Translations under genes and position numbers: made by a program
The notes under the pieces: model-generated
The model's input: the letters and a program-made list of their open reading frames with translations, nothing else
The model's database searches: none
Told to the model about the DNA's origin: nothing
DNA from: Patescibacteria group bacterium
GTDB lineage: Bacteria > Patescibacteriota > JACPGU01
Length of the DNA: 64,000 bases
Assembly (NCBI GenBank): GCA_022703645.1
Contig: JAKLDG010000001.1
Location: forward strand, 338,814 to 402,813
Reading direction: 5' to 3'
In this document: piece after piece, positions 5,307 through 31,626 of the stretch
How the letters are laid out: each line of letters opens with the position of its first letter
Position numbering within the stretch: the first letter of the stretch is position 1

Positions 5307-6152
5307 TTATTTTAGTCTGCCGATATCTTCTACTGCCTTTTTGAATAAATCTACTAAGTTTGGATAATCTAGGTGATTCAAAACCTCTCCTTCTTCCACC
5401 CATTTAATTTCTTTAATATGAGCTTCCGGATTAATTATAGTATTTACCTGAGTAGTTCGTATAAGATAGAAGTGCACGCTTTTTTTGATAACCTCTTCGC
5501 CGCTTTTATCAGTAAATTTAATTTCGCCAACTTCACCAAGAATTTCAGCCTCAGTTATACCTGTTTCTTCTTGAATTTCTCTTACAGCTGCTTCTTGCCA
5601 AGTTTCTCCTTCTTCAACTTTACCTTTTGGAAAAGTCCATTTATCATAAGGGTTTTTGACAATTATAAAAAAGTTTTTCCCATTTTCTACGCGGTATATT
5701 ATTCCACCAGCGCTAATTATCAAGTTTTCTTCTTCATACTTACTACTTGCGCGGTAAATTGTTCCCAATACACCATTAATGAACTTACCACTGTTTTCTC
5801 CGCCAAATTCCTTACCAAGCTCCACAGCCTCATTAATAACCGCTTTTGGAGGCACTTCTGCATCATAAATCAACTCATAAATACCAATTCGCAATATAGA
5901 GCGGTCAATAGTGGCAATCTGTTCAAGAGGCCATTCGGGAGCAGTCTTTTTGATTAAGTCATTGATCTCTGATATTTTTTCCACCGTTCCTTTTATAATC
6001 TTACGGCAAAATTCCTCATCAACCTTAAAACCGGAATTTTCAATATTCCGTTTTAAAATTTCAGCAATATCTCTTTCTTCATCAAAATCCCACTCGTAAA
6101 GAGATTGTAAAACAACCATTCTTGACTGATGTCTAATAGATAGGTGAGACAT
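5307..6152 (-). CDS. nusB: NusB antitermination factor fused to a C-terminal Nudix hydrolase domain
   Basis: N-terminal 135 aa match NusB (VDRSILRIGIYEL..., INEAVELGKEFGG, FINGVL). The C-terminal 140 aa carry the Nudix box GKVEEGETWQEAAVREIQEETG. Confidence 0.85.
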   Translation of the reverse strand: MSHLSIRHQSRMVVLQSLYEWDFDEERDIAEILKRNIENSGFKVDEEFCRKIIKGTVEKISEINDLIKKTAPEWPLEQIATIDRSILRIGIYELIYDAEVPPKAVINEAVELGKEFGGENSGKFINGVLGTIYRASSKYEEENLIISAGGIIYRVENGKNFFIIVKNPYDKWTFPKGKVEEGETWQEAAVREIQEETGITEAEILGEVGEIKFTDKSGEEVIKKSVHFYLIRTTQVNTIINPEAHIKEIKWVEEGEVLNHLDYPNLVDLFKKAVEDIGRLK

Positions 6153-6511: not shown

Positions 6512-6546
6512 AAAAAAACCGCCTTTTGGGGCGGTTGGGGTTTTTA
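6512..6546. terminator. bidirectional intrinsic terminator
   Basis: Hairpin aaccgcc-ttttgg-ggcggtt with an A-run upstream and a T-run downstream. Confidence 0.5.
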
Positions 6547-6578
6547 ATTCCAATTTTCTCAAAACTATTTTACGTTTT

Positions 6579-7145
6579 CTAAGCTCTTTTTGCAATATTC
6601 TTAGGGTTATTCATATCCCGACCCCACGTTGATGGATTTGATTCTATATAAGAATAAATTTCATCGTAAGATTTTTCATTGCGGATAATGTGTTCATAAT
6701 AGTTGCGTTGCCAGATACGATTTTCAAATGGTATTAATATATTTTGTTTAACCCCATCAATGCATTTTTTCGTTGTTAGTGATTTAAAACGTTGAATTAT
6801 TTGCGGCAATGACAGTTGTTTTTCTGTAGGGGCAAACCCCCGTGTTTGCCCGTTTTTAATTGGGCGGACACAGGGGTCCGCCCCTACGATACAGATAATC
6901 AAATGTATATGATTTGGCATAACAGAAAATATATCTACCTCGATATTTGAATAATACTTTGGGATTTCTTCTATCGTTTGGAAAATTATTATCCCAATAT
7001 CATTCAATCTCATCCCTCCATCAACAATTTCTCCGAACAAACACCCTCTATCTTGTGTACATATTGTAATAAAATAATCTCCGGGTTCGGAATAATCATA
7101 ACCTTTTATTCGTATTGACCTTCTGTTTTTGTTTTCTTTTTACAT
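6579..7145 (-). mobile_element. IS200-like Y1 HuH transposase of the REP-associated (RAYT) type, probably inactivated
   Basis: NHIHLII HuH motif and C-terminal YY catalytic region. The N-terminus (YDYSEPGDYFITICT...LFGEIVDG) matches its paralog at 20.9 kb. The ancestral ATG (7145-7143) is followed immediately by an in-frame TAA; the intact ORF only restarts at TTG 7040. A 66-bp GC-rich palindromic element sits in frame at 6824-6889. Confidence 0.65.
6824..6889. repeat. REPIN-like GC-rich palindromic element (two inverted REP hairpins with GTAG-containing termini), in frame inside the RAYT gene
   Basis: CTGTAGGGGC-[gggcaaac/gtttgccc hairpin]-gtttttaatt-[gggcggac/gtccgccc hairpin]-GCCCCTACGA. 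Far GC-richer than the flanks. On the minus strand it encodes VGADPCVRPIKNGQTRGFAPT. Confidence 0.7.
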
Positions 7146-7160
7146 TAGAACAATTGAGAA

Positions 7161-10070
7161 CTATCTCACAAAATTTACCAATCGATTTTTGACGTAAATT
7201 ATTTTTTTATAGTTTGTTGAAATTTCCTTGAATTTCTCCGTATCTTGAATGACTTTCAATGCGTCTTCCTCGCTCGCATCAAAAGGCATCAGAATATTAC
7301 CGCGGTGTTTGCCGTTTTCTTGAATTACTATTTCAATCATATCTTCTTTTATTTTTTCCGGGTCGTGTTTTGGCCAAGTAAATTTTCCGCTAAAAATACT
7401 TTCTTCAAATCCGAATTGTTGCCAGATTTCCTCCGCGATATGAGGGCAAATAGGAGATAGAAGCAGAATCAAAACCATGTATGGCTGCGGGTAATTATAT
7501 AACAGATCTTTTTTGCTAATTAAAAAGTTGGTAAATTCCATTAATGTCGATACGAGAGTGTTTAAGTGCAGGCGATCCAGATCTTCATTAAATTTCTTGA
7601 TTGTTTTATGTGTCATCACTTCCAGTTCCGTTTCTCCAATTTCAAAAGAATCGGTAATTATTTTTGCCGGATCTTTTTCTTCAACCCGAGGCGCAATTTC
7701 TTGGCCAAGATTCCAGACTTTATTTAGAAATCTCGAAACACCCTCTATTCCTTGGCTGCTCCATGCCGCATCTTGCTCGAAAGGACCGATGAACATTTCA
7801 TAAGCGCGGGCGGTATCAGCACCGTATTTTTCGACAATTTCATTCGGGTTTACTACATTTCCAAGGGATTTACTCATCTTTTTCCCATCTTCTGCTAATA
7901 TCATTCCATGATTAATTCTTTTGGCATAAGGCTCAGAAGTTGGCACAAGCCCAAGATCATGAAAGAAAATATTCCAAAATCTAGAATAAAGCAGATGAAG
8001 CGTGGTATGTTCCGGTCCGCCCTCGTAAATATCCACCGGCATCCAATATTTCAACTTTTCAAAATCAGCGAACTGTTTGTCATTATGAGGATCGATGTAG
8101 CGCAAGAAATACCATGACGAACCTGCCCAGTTCGGCATAGTATCTGTCTCTCTTACAGCAGGTCCATTGCACTTTGGGCAAGTCGTATTTACCCAGTCTG
8201 TAATCTTTGCAAGAGGGGATTGCCCGTCCTCGGTTGGTTCGTAATTTTCCACTTCAGGCAATAGCACAGGCAATTGATCTTCCGGTACAGCAACTTCACC
8301 GCAATTAGGACAATATACAATTGGGATAGGCTCGCCCCAATAATGTTGGCGTGAAAATATCCAGTCGCGCAGATGGTAGGTGGTTATAAAATCACCAAGC
8401 TTCTCATCTTTTAATTTTTGGGTAATCTTTTTTCGAGCTTCCTCAGAGCTTAATCCGGTAAAATCTTGCGAATTGATTAGTACACCATCTCTGGTATACG
8501 CCGGGATTTTCGCGCTCATTTTTTCCTGCCAGATGCCAACCTCGGCATGCGTCATATTAGCATAATTCAATTGCGATTCATCAAGCCAAATCACATCGTG
8601 GTCATCTTTTTCTTTTTGCGAAATATCTTCTTGTGTGTGGTCGACTAATTCAAATAGCACAGCAGTGGTATAAGAAATTCGATTTAAATCTTTGTGATTA
8701 GCAAAATACTCGGTTCGCGTTTGACCGAAAAGAACCCTGTCTAATTTTAAGTTTGTAAACCCAGTTTCTTCGGCAACTTCTCTTTTTGCAGCAGTTACCA
8801 CGTCTTCGCCTTCTTCAATGCCACCCATTGGAAAAGTCGTCCAATCAAAGTTTTTCCATTTAAGTCCAAGATATTTTCCAGTTTTTGGATCGCGAACTAT
8901 GGCATGAATATTTTTTCTTTCAACGGTCTTTTTACCCTCAACTGGCGGGTTTCTTTCATCAATAATATTTGGTACGACTACTTCTTCGATTTTAATTCCA
9001 TATTTAACGGCAAAAGCATAGTCGCGTGTATCGTGAGCGGGAACTGCCATGATAGCGCCTGTACCATAATCTGCAAGCACATAATCAGCAACCCAGACCT
9101 CTACTTTGCGTCCATTTATAGGGTTTATAGCAGTAATACCTTCTAATTTTACGCCCGTCTTTTCCTTATCCTCAACCATTCTTTCAATATTTGACTTTTT
9201 CTTTGATTCATTAATGTATTCCTTGACCTCTTCTAAATTCGAGATTCTATCTTCTAAATTCTTTATGTATCCCGATTCCGGTGCCAAGACAATATATGTA
9301 CAACCAAACAACGTGTCTACCCTAGTAGTGAAAACCTTTATACTAGATTCTAAATTCTTTATTCTAAATTCTATTTCGCTTCCTTCAGATTTTCCTATCC
9401 AGTTTTCCTGCATGAGTTTTACTCTTTCCGGATAATCAACATTTTTTAGCCCTTCGAGTAACTTATCTGCATAAGCTGTAATACGCAACATCCATTGATC
9501 AAGTTCTTTTTTACTTGCGGCAGTTCCGCATCTTTCACATTTTTCATCGATTACTTCTTCATTGGCTAGCCCTATTTTGCAGCTTGGACACCAGTTAATC
9601 GCCATTTTCTTTTTGTAAGCAAGGCCATTTTCATAAAATTTTAGAAAAAACCACTGTGTCCATTCGTAATAAGCCGGATCAGTAGTATCGATTTCGCGAG
9701 ACCAATCAAAAGAATAACCAAGACTTTTTTGTTGTTTCGTAAAATTTGCAATGTTTTGAGCGGTAGCAACCGACGGGTGGATTTTATGCTTTATTGCGTA
9801 GTTTTCAGTGGGCAGACCAAAAGCGTCCCATCCAACCGGAAGCATCACGTTGTAACCCTCGAGCCTTTTCTTGCGCGCAATAATATCAGAAGTAGTCTGA
9901 CCTCGAAGATGCCCCATATGCAGACCATCTCCGGATGGATAATTGAACTCAAACAACATATAGAACTTTGGTTTTTTATCAAAGTCTTTCGCATGATATA
10001 GATCGGGAATCTTTTCCCAGATATCCTGCCATTTTTTTTCGATTTCGTGAGGATTGTAGTTGGTTGACAT
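7161..10070 (-). CDS. leuS: leucyl-tRNA synthetase with an inserted Nudix hydrolase domain
   Basis: HMGH and KMSKS class-I motifs, CP1 editing-domain signatures (TTRVDTLFG, AHDTRDYAF), LeuRS-like termini. About aa 383-515 carry a Nudix box, GGIEEGEDVVTAAKREVAEETG. Confidence 0.9.
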   Translation of the reverse strand: MSTNYNPHEIEKKWQDIWEKIPDLYHAKDFDKKPKFYMLFEFNYPSGDGLHMGHLRGQTTSDIIARKKRLEGYNVMLPVGWDAFGLPTENYAIKHKIHPSVATAQNIANFTKQQKSLGYSFDWSREIDTTDPAYYEWTQWFFLKFYENGLAYKKKMAINWCPSCKIGLANEEVIDEKCERCGTAASKKELDQWMLRITAYADKLLEGLKNVDYPERVKLMQENWIGKSEGSEIEFRIKNLESSIKVFTTRVDTLFGCTYIVLAPESGYIKNLEDRISNLEEVKEYINESKKKSNIERMVEDKEKTGVKLEGITAINPINGRKVEVWVADYVLADYGTGAIMAVPAHDTRDYAFAVKYGIKIEEVVVPNIIDERNPPVEGKKTVERKNIHAIVRDPKTGKYLGLKWKNFDWTTFPMGGIEEGEDVVTAAKREVAEETGFTNLKLDRVLFGQTRTEYFANHKDLNRISYTTAVLFELVDHTQEDISQKEKDDHDVIWLDESQLNYANMTHAEVGIWQEKMSAKIPAYTRDGVLINSQDFTGLSSEEARKKITQKLKDEKLGDFITTYHLRDWIFSRQHYWGEPIPIVYCPNCGEVAVPEDQLPVLLPEVENYEPTEDGQSPLAKITDWVNTTCPKCNGPAVRETDTMPNWAGSSWYFLRYIDPHNDKQFADFEKLKYWMPVDIYEGGPEHTTLHLLYSRFWNIFFHDLGLVPTSEPYAKRINHGMILAEDGKKMSKSLGNVVNPNEIVEKYGADTARAYEMFIGPFEQDAAWSSQGIEGVSRFLNKVWNLGQEIAPRVEEKDPAKIITDSFEIGETELEVMTHKTIKKFNEDLDRLHLNTLVSTLMEFTNFLISKKDLLYNYPQPYMVLILLLSPICPHIAEEIWQQFGFEESIFSGKFTWPKHDPEKIKEDMIEIVIQENGKHRGNILMPFDASEEDALKVIQDTEKFKEISTNYKKIIYVKNRLVNFVR

Positions 10071-13603: not shown

Positions 13604-14923
13604 CTATTTTGTCAACTCGAGTACTACTAAAGCCTCAATATGCGGAGTGCGGGGAAAAAAATTATAGAGCTTCATAAATTTTATATCGTATTTATCTTTG
13701 AGAATACTGATATCGCGGGCTTGTGTGGCGATATTGCATGACAGATAAATTATTTTTTTGGGGGTTACTTCAATCAGTCGATCTAATACTTTATCATGGA
13801 GTCCAGCTCGAGGCGGATCAAATATGATGGTTTTATCTTTTTCAATATAATCAAGAGCTTTTTCAGCAGGGGATAGAGTGGCTTCGCAATTACCGATTTT
13901 ATTTAATCCAATATTTTCTTGCGCAAAACTAACTGCCTCCATATTAGATTCAACTAGTTGGTTCGCGCCTATGGATAAACCAATAGCGCCAACGCCGGAG
14001 TAAAAATCGATAATACGCGAATTACTCGAATTTTGCGAATTTTCGCGAATTGAATCGGAAATGTCTTTTAATGCCATTTCAAAAACGGGAATATTTACTT
14101 GGAAAAATGAATTTATCCCATATTTGAATTGTTTGCCCGCGATTTCCTCTATTAGAAAATCTTGTCCTTTCTGGTATAAAACTTCCGTAATCACAGAAGC
14201 AGGGGACTTGTGTGTCGAATAGTACAGATTAAATCCGATAAATTTTTTATCGAGCATAGGATAGTTATCGAAAGTAAGTTTATCTTTTATAAATAACCCT
14301 GCGACAGTTTCGCCCTTCATATTCGAACGAACGATCAAAGCCTTCATATTGCGCATGGTTAGCGATGTAGAGTTAACCCAATCCAATATCTTTTTTGCGG
14401 TATCGTTTATCGCGTCTGTTGCAAGCTCACAACTTTCGATAGGAATTCTAACCTTTTGTCCGCGTTTGAAAAATGCAAGTGAAATTTTTTCATCCACCCC
14501 TTCAACAAAAGAAAATTCCATTTTATTGCGATAACCGGATTCAACATTGTTGGTTTCGATCTGTAGGGGCAACCCTTGCGGTTGCCCTTTTTTGGCAGGG
14601 GCAAGCCCTGCCCCTACGGATATCCCTCCAATTCGTCGGTATGTTTCGTTCGCGGCTTCTTTCTTCATTTCGTTTTCATAATCAATGTCCATCATTGCCC
14701 AAGCAGAGCATGATAGAAAATGATCTTCATTTGGTTTAATTCGATGGGGCGAAGGTTTGACAAAGTTTACCGCAAGACATTCGTAAATTCCTTTTCGTTT
14801 GTTAATAATTTCCGCTTCAACTTCTTCTCCCGGTAAAGCATTCCAAATAAAATAAGTGTAATCATTCTCATGCGCAATACCCTGGCCGCCATCAACTAAT
14901 TTTTCAATTTTGAGTTTAACCAT
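13604..14923 (-). CDS. RNA (uracil-C5)-methyltransferase, RlmD/TrmA family, carrying an in-frame REPIN-like insertion
   Basis: N-terminal TRAM-like domain; SAM MTase motifs DFYSGVGAIG, FDPPRAG, YLSCNIAT. The element at 14561-14619 encodes VGAGLAPAKKGQPQGLPLQ in frame. Confidence 0.8.
   Translation of the reverse strand: MVKLKIEKLVDGGQGIAHENDYTYFIWNALPGEEVEAEIINKRKGIYECLAVNFVKPSPHRIKPNEDHFLSCSAWAMMDIDYENEMKKEAANETYRRIGGISVGAGLAPAKKGQPQGLPLQIETNNVESGYRNKMEFSFVEGVDEKISLAFFKRGQKVRIPIESCELATDAINDTAKKILDWVNSTSLTMRNMKALIVRSNMKGETVAGLFIKDKLTFDNYPMLDKKFIGFNLYYSTHKSPASVITEVLYQKGQDFLIEEIAGKQFKYGINSFFQVNIPVFEMALKDISDSIRENSQNSSNSRIIDFYSGVGAIGLSIGANQLVESNMEAVSFAQENIGLNKIGNCEATLSPAEKALDYIEKDKTIIFDPPRAGLHDKVLDRLIEVTPKKIIYLSCNIATQARDISILKDKYDIKFMKLYNFFPRTPHIEALVVLELTK
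14561..14619. repeat. REPIN-like GC-rich palindromic element, in frame inside the RNA methyltransferase gene
   Basis: CTGTAGGGGC-[gggcaacc/ggttgccc hairpin]-tttttt-[gcagggg...cccctgc hairpin]-GCCCCTACGG. Same termini and two-hairpin architecture as the element at 6824-6889. Confidence 0.7.
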
Positions 14924-17141: not shown

Positions 17142-17292
17142 TATTATTGTCTCCTTTTTTAAGATTGCACGGGCTTTCCCGAATACATAAATATTAGCAA
17201 AAAATGGCTATAAATGCAAGTAAATTATAAAATTAAAAGTGGCTTGACGTTTTGGCGTCAAGCCACCTAAGAACCGTGATAAAAAAATAAAT

Positions 17293-18665: not shown

Positions 18666-19361
18666 CTATTTCGTCGGGATCACGCCGACCATGAAACCTG
18701 TTTCCAACGAATCGCCCTTCCTTTTCTGGAAATACGGTCCGACGTTGAAAATAAATCCGTCGGTTACGATAGCCCCTGTCATGCGGATATCCGTCGTATG
18801 ATTCTTGCTCCGGGATACTTCCACCAACGGCAATTTTTTGCCGGCATAGGAGAATCCGATAATCGAATCGTTCGCGCTTTTTTTCACGTCCATCGTGGAA
18901 AAAACTGTGAGACTGGTCAGAGCTTTCGGCGAATATCTACCCGTCACTCTTACCGTACCGCCTTTTTGCAGCGGCATCAAAACGCCGATACCCGCGCCGT
19001 TCGCGTGGTAATCAACCGCGGTCGTGTGTGTAATCACGGTCGGACCGCCCGTCACCTGCAGAGACATCGTGTAAATCGTCGCGTCCACGCGGCTTCCGAG
19101 CTTCGCGCTCAAAGAGATGTGGTTGCCGGAAAGCATGTCGCGGAAAACGTACTGTTTCACACCGACGCATGCTTTACCATTGAGTACATTCAGGTTCCCG
19201 AAGACGATTTTGCTGCCTCCGTCAGGAATCGAGTAGTACTGCACCAGCGAGGGCATTACTCTGTAGAAAGCCGTGGCGTCCGCTTCGTTGTAGGCGAACG
19301 CTTTCGCTGAAACGAAGAGCAATCCGAACACAAACAACATAAACAGCTTTTTCATAACCAA
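18666..19361 (-). CDS. secreted beta-rich hypothetical protein
   Basis: Signal peptide MKKLFMLFVFGLLFVSAKAFA. GC-richer than the genome background. Confidence 0.55.
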   Translation of the reverse strand: MVMKKLFMLFVFGLLFVSAKAFAYNEADATAFYRVMPSLVQYYSIPDGGSKIVFGNLNVLNGKACVGVKQYVFRDMLSGNHISLSAKLGSRVDATIYTMSLQVTGGPTVITHTTAVDYHANGAGIGVLMPLQKGGTVRVTGRYSPKALTSLTVFSTMDVKKSANDSIIGFSYAGKKLPLVEVSRSKNHTTDIRMTGAIVTDGFIFNVGPYFQKRKGDSLETGFMVGVIPTK

Positions 19362-20599: not shown

Positions 20600-21183
20600 G
20601 TGTTGGCAATTATAAATTCATGGTATTTTTCCTTAAAATATTCTTAGGATTATTGCTGTCTCGTTCCCACATTTGCGGATTGGATTCTATGTAACTATAA
20701 ATTTCATCGTACGATTTTTCATTGCGAATGATGTGTTCGTAATAGCCGCGTTGAAAAATGGGGTTGCCTGTTTTGTCTAAGATAATATTTATCTTTTTCG
20801 TTGATTGATATTTAAAATACCCAATTATTTGTCCTAATGTTGGTTTTTTATCCCGTAGGGGCGGGGTCTCCCCGCCCTGAATTAAATTGTTTTTGTTACC
20901 TACAAATATCGTTTTTCTCTTCTAATATCCGCAATATAAAATGAATATGATTTGGCATTATCTGAAAAATATCTAATTTTGTATTTGGGAAATGATTCGG
21001 AATTTCGTACCAACATTTTTCTGCAACATTTCCAATCTTATTTAATTCCATTTTCCCATCCACAATTTCCCCAAACAAACATTCTCTGTCTTTTGTGCAG
21101 ATCGTAACAAAATAATCTCCAGGTTCGGAATAATCATATTCTTTAATCCGTATCGATTTTCTATTTCGTTCGATTTTTGACAT
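20600..21183 (-). pseudogene. degraded IS200-like RAYT transposase paralog (N-terminal 95 aa intact, C-terminal part out of frame)
   Basis: MSKIERNRKSIRIKEYDYSEPGDYFVTICT...MPNHIHFIL aligns with the 6.6-7.1 kb copy. DNA downstream (20600-20850) is highly similar to 6579-6830 but no longer in frame. A GC-rich REP-like hairpin sits at the equivalent position. Confidence 0.6.
20851..20903. repeat. truncated REPIN-like element (single GC hairpin plus GCCCCTACGG terminus) inside the RAYT pseudogene
   Basis: On the minus strand: tgtaggtaac-aaaaacaatttaattc-agggcgggg-aga-ccccgccc-ctacggg. Lacks hairpin 1 and carries the stop codon that ends the ORF. Confidence 0.55.
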
Positions 21184-30685: not shown

Positions 30686-31450
30686 ATGAAGATTATTTCT
30701 TTCAATATTAACGGCATCAACTCGGCCATCAAATATGGTTTGCGGGATTTTATATCTCTAGAAAATGCCGATATCTACTTGTTCCAAGAAGTAAAAAATT
30801 CCTGGGATACTATTGATGACTCTTTGCGGAAAATTCCGGGTTACGAAACATATTTTTACCAAGCAGCAAAAAAAGGATATTCCGGACTTCTTGCATACGT
30901 GAAAACGAAGAACAAACCAATCGGATACAAGGAGGGTATAGGGTTTAGGGTTATAGACGAACAAGCGAGAGTGCAGACATTAGAATTCCAGGATTATTAT
31001 TTAGTTAATACCTATCTACCACATTCAGGAAGGGAACTTGAGAAACTTCCATTCAAACGTGAAGTAAACGAAAAATTCCTCGAATACTGTGAGTCTTTGA
31101 AAAAGAAAAAGCCACTTATAATTGCAGGGGATCTGAATGTTGCGCACAAAGATATTGATCTCGCCAATCCTCGCGCCAATATGGGAAACGCCGGATTTAC
31201 GACGGATGAGAGAGATTTTTTCGATAAATTCTTATCCCACGGATATATCGATACATTCCGCGAATTTGTAAAAGAAAATGGCCACTATACCTGGTGGAGC
31301 TGGCGGACAGGGGTACGCGAAAGAAATATCGGTTGGCGCATTGATTATTTTCTCGTCTCTGAAAATATTTCAAAACGAGTGAAAAAGAGTTGGATTCTGA
31401 AAGACATTCTCGGATCCGATCATTGCCCGATAGGATTAGAAATCCTGTAG
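30686..31450 (+). CDS. xth: exodeoxyribonuclease III (AP endonuclease)
   Basis: ISFNINGI; YTWWSWRTG ... WRIDYFLVS; GSDHCPI. The stop codon TAG lies inside a CTGTAGGGGC REP-like terminus. Confidence 0.9.
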   Translation: MKIISFNINGINSAIKYGLRDFISLENADIYLFQEVKNSWDTIDDSLRKIPGYETYFYQAAKKGYSGLLAYVKTKNKPIGYKEGIGFRVIDEQARVQTLEFQDYYLVNTYLPHSGRELEKLPFKREVNEKFLEYCESLKKKKPLIIAGDLNVAHKDIDLANPRANMGNAGFTTDERDFFDKFLSHGYIDTFREFVKENGHYTWWSWRTGVRERNIGWRIDYFLVSENISKRVKKSWILKDILGSDHCPIGLEIL

Positions 31451-31500
31451 GGGCGCAAAATTTTAAGCCCTTTTTTTGGGGCGTTATGTGTAGCATTCCT
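31445..31500. repeat. degenerate REPIN-like element (CTGTAGGGGC-gcaaaattttaa-gccc-ttttttt-ggggcg...) at the 3' end of xth
   Basis: Shares the 10-bp 5' terminus and T-rich spacer with the elements at 6824 and 14561; the 3' half has decayed. Confidence 0.45.
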
Positions 31501-31626
31501 ACAAAACCGTTCTTTCTTTGGCTTTTATAACGTAAAATTAACCATGCGCTTTATATTGGACTTTTTTTAAATTTAGCATAGAATAGGAGATAAGAAAACA
31601 AAAAAGCAATAAATCAATAAATCAAA

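Follow-up and report, generated by a model that had tools for sequence, protein, structure and literature searches.

Two broken genes in a 64-kb stretch of Patescibacteria DNA (64,000 nucleotides, called the window here) are very probably two of three paralogous REP-associated tyrosine transposases (RAYTs). Both appear to carry an ancestral, translated repetitive extragenic palindromic (REP) element inside the reading frame, and both appear to have been broken by separate point lesions. The two genes, denoted copy A and copy B, lie on one 206.8-kb contig together with an intact third gene, copy C, in a genome of roughly 0.87 Mb. By published features they fit TnpA-Y1 subclass 2.4, which is the same as RAYT Group 4. 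REPs within the genes of this group are already published; what is new here is the Patescibacteria member, which extends the subclass to a reduced genome. The system as a whole seems to be in partial decay, with one intact copy, two single-lesion pseudogenes, and heterogeneous REPs seen only inside open reading frames (ORFs).

The enzyme TnpAREP recognizes and cleaves REP hairpins in single-stranded DNA (ssDNA), guided by a GTAG sequence. Sequence profiles and a structural model both point to A and B as RAYT, or IS200-like, genes of the Y1 HuH type. Copy A scores 28 bits and copy C 26.9 bits on Pfam PF01797 (cut-off 23), and the best NCBIfam model by far is REP_Tyr_transpos (NF047646); the NCBIfam model transpos_IS200 reaches 21.2 bits, below its cut-off of 55. 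A profile of A, B, C, and eight homologs has its best PDB match in 4ER8, the TnpAREP of E. coli. The AlphaFold (AF2) model of A, made from 52 sequences, has a predicted local distance difference test (pLDDT) value of 87 and a predicted template modeling (pTM) score of 0.81. Its top 30 PDB matches in Foldseek are all Y1 transposases, the highest TMq being that of 4ER8 (0.54). In the model, NHIH falls in strand 77-84 and Y164/N168 in helix 155-174, while the REP-coded residues, ~85-110, form a low-pLDDT coil between the HuH strand and helix 111-131.

The E. coli TnpAREP/RAYT (YafM; 4ER8; subclass 2.2/Group 2) has in common with the present genes the Y1 HuH fold, the WQ...EH region, the Y-x3-N motif, and cognate GTAG-footed REP hairpins. 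It differs in its DHLH, where the genes here have NHIH, and in a short β3-αC loop without internal REP; the E. coli REPs instead flank the gene, in what is termed a REPtron, and are abundant extragenically. IS200/IS605 TnpA proteins (IS608, ISDra2) share the catalytic fold (Foldseek E about 1e-7) and act on ssDNA hairpins through the same HuH-plus-Tyr chemistry, but the Y motif here is of the RAYT type (YI..NP) and not Y...Q. No tnpB-like gene was present among the called genes beside A, B, or C, and no subterminal left-end or right-end (LE/RE) hairpins were seen around A and B when the flanks were read directly; neither of these was the object of a dedicated scan.

Quentin, Siguier, Chandler, and Fichant (2018, BMC Genomics 19:475, PMC6006769) describe REPs inserted within tnpAREP genes as a feature unique to subclass 2.4, which they equate with Bertels' RAYT Group 4. 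The subclass signatures are NH[IFV]H, WQ, and YIxNNP, the mean length is about 194 amino acids with no conserved C-terminal extension, and the associated REPs come in a "long canonical" type, whose stem base has three G-C pairs, and a "double foot" type, GT[AG]G...C[TC]AC (PMC6006769). A further trait of the subclass is an insertion of 8 amino acids where αB ends. Members of Group 4 are frequent in Cyanobacteria, and the group as a whole is dispersed over 17 classes (Bertels, Gallie, and Rainey 2017, GBE 9:2110, PMC5581495). The present genes resemble this group in many respects. NHIH occurs in A, B, and C, and WQ in A and C, with FQ in B; the proteins fall in the ~175-200 amino acid range (A would be 188, repaired B 190, and C is 175) and end roughly 14-24 residues past YIESNP, without a C-terminal extension domain. 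A variable-length, in-frame REP segment separates β3 and αC, the REP units are of the form GTAG-GGGC...GCCC with the expected foot and three G-C pairs, that of copy C is a perfect double-foot form, and homologs are spread patchily over many phyla. Differences from the published group are the Patescibacteria host, which belongs to the Candidate Phyla Radiation (CPR), the motif YIESNP, the lack of detected flanking REPs, and the apparent pseudogene state of two of the three copies. The Y-motif consensus of the family alignment is YIxxNP.

Copies A and B share the N-terminus (R/K)SIRIK.YDYSEPGDYF(I/V)TICT...CLFGEIVDG...MPNHIH and are both on the minus strand, in keeping with the initial annotation of the window, which had described two homologous RAYT remnants. 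Copy A begins at an ATG (7143-7145), the stop codon of leuS lying 15 nt upstream, and proceeds through YDYSEPGDYFITICT, LFGEIVDG, MPNHIH, a GC-rich segment, WQRNYYEH, and YSYIESNP to its stop codon at 6579-6581. In copy B, NHIH occupies 20941-20952, and the C-terminal frame is open from 20921 to a stop at 20610-20612, passing through the hairpin to a normal C-terminus. YSYIESNP is present in all three copies. Outside the REP segment, A, B, and C are 63-70% identical in pairs, a level close to, or a little higher than, the one each shares with homologs from other phyla, and they appear to be old paralogs holding three different REP types. Around the Y motif, A and B reach 92% protein and 83% nucleotide identity. 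The extended 3' DNA similarity reported at first is best accounted for, as judged by codon usage, by protein conservation together with codon bias: identical codons are used at about 60% of conserved residues throughout, no block approaches 100%, and recent gene conversion is rejected on this ground.

The hairpins in A and B are genuine GTAG-footed REPs, and in both genes the GC-rich module lies a few codons past NHIH, directly after the HuH motif as originally described. The dimer in copy A, which is REPIN-like, reads on the coding strand as GTAG-GGGCGGAC-CCCTGT-GTCCGCCC, a 10-nt spacer, and GGGCAAAC-ACGGGG-GTTTGCCC-CTAC; it translates as VGADPCVRPIKNGQTRGFAPT and folds as ssDNA at -23.9 kcal/mol (z = -6.0). 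Copy B has one intact 8-bp stem, GTAG-GGGCGGGG-TCT-CCCCGCCC, with an ssDNA fold of z = -3.6 and the reading GGETPPLR in the C-terminal frame. Beside it is an AT-decayed left arm, GTAGGTAACAAAAACAATTTAATTCA on the coding strand. Copy C has a perfect double-foot hairpin, GTAGGGGCGGGTTTGAAACCCGCCCCTAC, as its internal REP, and the translation is VGAGLKPAPT. The three types are therefore distinct: a dimer with CCCTGT/ACGGGG loops in A, a single GGGCGGGG stem in B, and a double-foot GGGCGGGTT stem in C.

All canonical units consist of a GTAG foot followed by a perfect stem of 7-8 bp that begins GGGC and ends GCCC. The inner stem positions vary among units while full pairing is kept (AAAC/GTTT, GGAC/GTCC, AACC/GGTT, AGGG/CCCT, and GGGG/CCCC). 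The window contains five GC-rich stems with a GT[AG]G foot, whereas shuffled sequences give an expectation of 0.84 (maximum 3). Four of these five are canonical GTAGGGGC units, to which is added one copy A arm at 62.5% stem GC; the fifth stem, at 19273, is an unrelated chance-type match and is not counted as a canonical REP. Each of the five canonical units detected in the window is intragenic. Neither Rfam (gathering thresholds) nor a tRNA scan gave matches anywhere in the window.

The internal REP is widespread among homologs. Copy A matches at least 7,972 database proteins; among the 116 parsed of the best 120 listed, 110 have a VGx...APT-type module at the same site (31-119 amino acids, with frequent tandem expansions), a fraction that may be inflated by the ranking of the list according to similarity to a query that itself has the REP peptide. 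At the DNA level, 80 GTDB representative loci from species other than that of the window were surveyed and 72 parsed. A GT[AG]G-footed GC hairpin stands between the HuH and WQ codons in 57 of these, from many phyla, and the other 15, with no detectable hairpin, have open ORFs and often remnant peptides such as ...SPLH or APT. Of 55 cases, 49 have the 5' GTAG foot in frame 0 (GTA-G). For the 3' CTAC foot two reading frames are used, giving APT 34 times and PL[QRPH] 18 times, which implies that the conserved entity is the DNA palindrome and not the peptide. The encoded VGA...APT peptides should not be annotated as real domains.

REPs also occur near these genes, within 300 nt in 34 of the 72 loci. 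Among 42 loci, 15 have an internal REP whose foot plus stem recurs identically in another REP of the locus (L012, counted among them, is possibly an artefact of an unparsed gene end). This sharing suggests that the internal copy is part of the same evolving REP population. The copy B 23-mer GTAGGGGCGGGGTCTCCCCGCCC is likewise identical to a REP flanking the homolog of a Planktothrix sp. metagenome-assembled genome (L060 2590-2612 vs window 20855-20877), and in this intact homolog the internal REP is translated as VGGKTPPLR, like the C-terminal frame of copy B. As a separate observation, the shared 23-mer is consistent with REP types traveling with RAYT sub-lineages across phyla.

These results suggest an explanation of the internal hairpins. 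The substrate-type repeat of the subclass 2.4 enzyme itself (GTAG foot, GC-rich stem, base GGGC/GCCC) sits inside the gene between HuH strand β3 and αC as a single unit, an inverted dimer, or a double-foot hairpin. Kept in-frame, it is read as a surface loop that is variable and disordered (VGAxPxxxP...GQxxGxAPT; the alternative frame gives ...PL[QRPH]), so that its presence would not inactivate the protein, and the loop is probably functionally neutral. Occupation of the site would date back to the origin of the subclass, and the REPs there would turn over with the extragenic REPs of each genome. Since the hairpin is translated in-frame in intact homologs, it is not what breaks A or B, and it appears to be ancestral to the subclass rather than an inactivating insertion. 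GC-rich hairpins inside small "transposase" ORFs of this kind are a family hallmark, which annotators should not call disruptive insertions.

In-frame palindromes are tolerated elsewhere. The Rickettsia palindromic elements are palindromic repeats lying in-frame in protein-coding genes. Like these and the intragenic GTAG REPs, the repeats described here are tolerated in-frame, usually in loops or linkers, where they encode 20-30 amino acids. What sets the present case apart is that the host gene is the putative mobilizing enzyme itself and that the position is the same throughout the subclass. Di Nocera et al. (2013, BMC Genomics 14:522) describe intragenic GTAG REPs as well as GTAG feet that supply TAG stops, an ability that a GTAG foot may also have in the window. 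Full-text literature searches for REP-coded peptides (GQPQGVAPT and others) returned no papers.

The initial annotation had left a choice between a preferred target inside RAYT genes and an ancestral feature of the clade. The ancestral alternative is the one supported here and published for subclass 2.4/RAYT Group 4, although turnover of REPs at the fixed site is evident. Recurrent targeted insertion, in which the β3-αC site would be a preferred REP target and REPs would be gained independently in each copy and lineage, is unlikely to be the better account. It would explain why A, B, and C hold three different REP types, why the internal REPs of homologs are often identical to flanking ones, and why tandem expansions occur; different REPs at one site in rlmD orthologs likewise indicate that REP-occupied sites are re-used. 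The codon boundaries, on the other hand, are constant (I/V-VGA ... APT-LSLP), 80-95% of members are occupied across many phyla, and the 15 REP-free loci often keep remnant peptides. Ancestral occupancy with turnover by exchange with the genomic REP pool is simpler, and the two processes are not mutually exclusive.

The internal REP could instead be a selected cis element, either a hairpin, in mRNA or ssDNA, by which RAYT would limit its own expression, or a "seed" copy linking enzyme and substrate genetically. Very high retention across phyla, preservation of the palindrome at the DNA level while the peptide frame varies, and concerted evolution with extragenic REPs are all in line with selection, and Di Nocera et al. 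(2013, BMC Genomics 14:522) suggest that REP hairpins can down-regulate RAYT expression. Such selection is nonetheless doubtful, given that 15 of 72 loci lack a detectable hairpin while their ORFs are open, that unrelated genes such as rlmD also tolerate these REPs, and that Quentin et al. take the REP-coded loop to be peripheral, with little impact on activity (PMC6006769). A bolder form of the idea, distinctly improbable at present, combines a self-carried element (a seed or substrate copy, or an autoregulatory hairpin) with in-frame ORF loops as perhaps the only REP refuges in ultra-compact CPR genomes; it draws on the intragenic position of all five REP units in the window and on re-use of the rlmD site. 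If the internal REP were functional, through autoregulation or enzyme-substrate linkage, this would matter for understanding the persistence of REP/RAYT systems and their movement between phyla.

Each copy has one ORF-breaking lesion. Copy A would be disabled by nonsense at codon 2, where an ATG followed directly by TAA had been noted from the outset against TCA in the paralog. For copy B the disabling change would be one extra nucleotide at the 5' border of the REP module. The alignment at this point reads CAT ATT GTA GGG in C and GAT ATT T GTA GGT in B, one T extra, and removal of one T from the TTT run restores an uninterrupted 190-amino acid ORF. Frame loss had been placed right after the hairpin, which is incorrect: the N-terminal frame stops at TAA 20896-20898, within the decayed left REP arm and 5' of the hairpin in the coding direction. 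Copy B further has FQ for WQ besides the AT-decayed left REP. A and B are probably recent, non-functional pseudogenes; both do appear inactivated, but "decayed" overstates damage that amounts to a single ORF-breaking lesion per copy. The proposal of a domesticated, decaying REP/RAYT system holds in part: two copies are broken, but the intact RAYT that was to be sought in the genome exists on the same contig (P0063, copy C), so the system is not wholly decayed. Copy C is likely to be an active enzyme.

Recoding would leave both genes usable, copy B by a programmed +1 frameshift in the window GAG-AAA-AAC...ATT-TGT-AGG-TAA and copy A by readthrough or a non-canonical start. The single lesion per copy, the stability of the lesions across assemblies, and a ~25 nt overlap of the copy B frames that includes an A5 run and, just ahead of a stop, a rare AGG are compatible with it. 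An A5 run is short for slippage, and copy B combines W->F at a conserved W with a decayed REP arm, which suggests relaxed constraint. In copy A no ATG, GTG, or TTG precedes codon 36, which means that initiation at a canonical codon further downstream would remove β1, and translation table 11 gave normal readings for the other long ORFs that were examined in the window. Recoding is not known in Y1 transposases, and the proposal is very improbable. Least likely of all is that the TAA and the frameshift are sequencing or assembly errors in two intact genes, for although the copy B frameshift falls in a short homopolymer (TTT), the lesions recur identically in other assemblies, with the copy B region 100% identical over 747-801 nt in five (ENA ERZ27257455, ERZ795055, and ERZ27257480; JGI 3300009776 and 3300009771), the copy A region 100% identical in one (ERZ27257455, ENA contig k141_216223), and the gene callers of those assemblies giving matching 95- and 153-amino acid fragments, and are thus not errors of a single assembly.

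Several points, together with the ranking of the homolog list, weigh against the explanation preferred here. Repaired copy B scores 19.8 bits on Pfam PF01797, below the cut-off of 23, and the REP_Tyr_transpos scores of A (59.2 bits) and B (53.0 bits) are under the curated equivalog cut-off of 80. The Y motif YIESNP has S where the published YIxNNP has N. No REPs were found flanking A or B in the window or within ±3 kb of C, so that the REPtron arrangement is absent. Finally, the other assemblies possibly come from the same or related samples, and the lesions could be fixed in one population only.

Table 1. Positions of the RAYT copies, their lesions and REPs, and other hairpins (window coordinates unless stated otherwise).
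Feature	Position	Strand	Remarks
RAYT copy A	6579..7145	minus	Y1 HuH gene, subclass 2.4-type; ATG, TAA at codon 2, then 186 open codons
Nonsense TAA at codon 2, copy A	7140..7142	minus	Sole ORF-breaking lesion in A; CAA (Gln) in C, TCA in B
HuH motif NHIH, copy A	6903..6914	minus	N76, H77, and H79 invariant in 52-sequence alignment
In-frame REP dimer (REPIN-like), copy A	6826..6887	.	Two REPs, which also pair together as one long hairpin
Conserved WQRN, copy A	6702-6713	minus	Within copy A ORF
Catalytic tyrosine motif YSYIESNP, copy A	6633..6656	minus	Y164 and N168 invariant in 52-sequence alignment
Terminator-like hairpin downstream of copy A	6516..6549	minus	CCGCC...GGCGG then T-run; sequence read directly
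RAYT copy B	20610..21183	minus	N-terminal 95 codons (20896-21183) in one frame, rest in +1 frame
Frameshift site, copy B	20904..20906	minus	Coding-strand TTT (plus-strand AAA) directly 5' of GTAGG
AT-decayed left REP arm, copy B	20878..20903	minus	Contains TAA 20896-20898
REP unit, copy B	20855..20877	plus	GTAG foot on template strand
Paralog C (P0063), intact RAYT	L001 3001-3528		175 amino acids; outside window, ~55 kb past copy A, with xerC-like integrase and obg genes on either side
REP dimer of GTAGGGGC type	14563..14617	.	In-frame in rlmD/rumA-like 23S rRNA U-C5 methyltransferase ORF (13604-14923, minus)
Possible decayed REP dimer remnant (GTAGGGGC...CCTAC)	31447..31510	plus	GTAG foot gives TAG stop of xth-like exonuclease III ORF (30686-31450); weak
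Perfect palindrome GTGGCTTGACG-TTTTGG-CGTCAAGCCAC	17239..17266		Between two minus-strand ORFs; GTGG...CCAC, resembles double-foot element

The remaining REP dimer of the window lies in the rlmD-like gene, where it encodes VGAGLAPAKKGQPQGLPLQ and constitutes an insertion of 13-15 amino acids relative to most homologs. CPR orthologs of rlmD (P0122, P0124, and P0152) have different REP-coded peptides at the same site, which on these comparisons is a REP "hot spot" that has been re-used within a housekeeping gene. Close homologs resolved the REP insertion, whereas aligning the rlmD-like protein to the PDB did not.

Three further hairpin candidates differ from the canonical units. The possible remnant at the end of the exonuclease III ORF folds no better than shuffles (z = -0.5). 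The perfect palindrome was rejected as a double-foot REP; it is intergenic and followed by a T-run on the minus strand, and is most simply an intrinsic terminator. The hairpin downstream of copy A is also not a GTAG REP, having a T-run after its stem on the minus strand.

Next to A, B, and C lie housekeeping genes or small uncharacterized ones, and the intergenic gaps are short. Two genes near copy A have unusual domain combinations in the precomputed Pfam matches of the same contig: the leucyl-tRNA synthetase (LeuRS) ORF (7161-10070, minus) matches a NUDIX domain internally, and the nusB ORF (5307-6152, minus) is fused to a C-terminal NUDIX domain.

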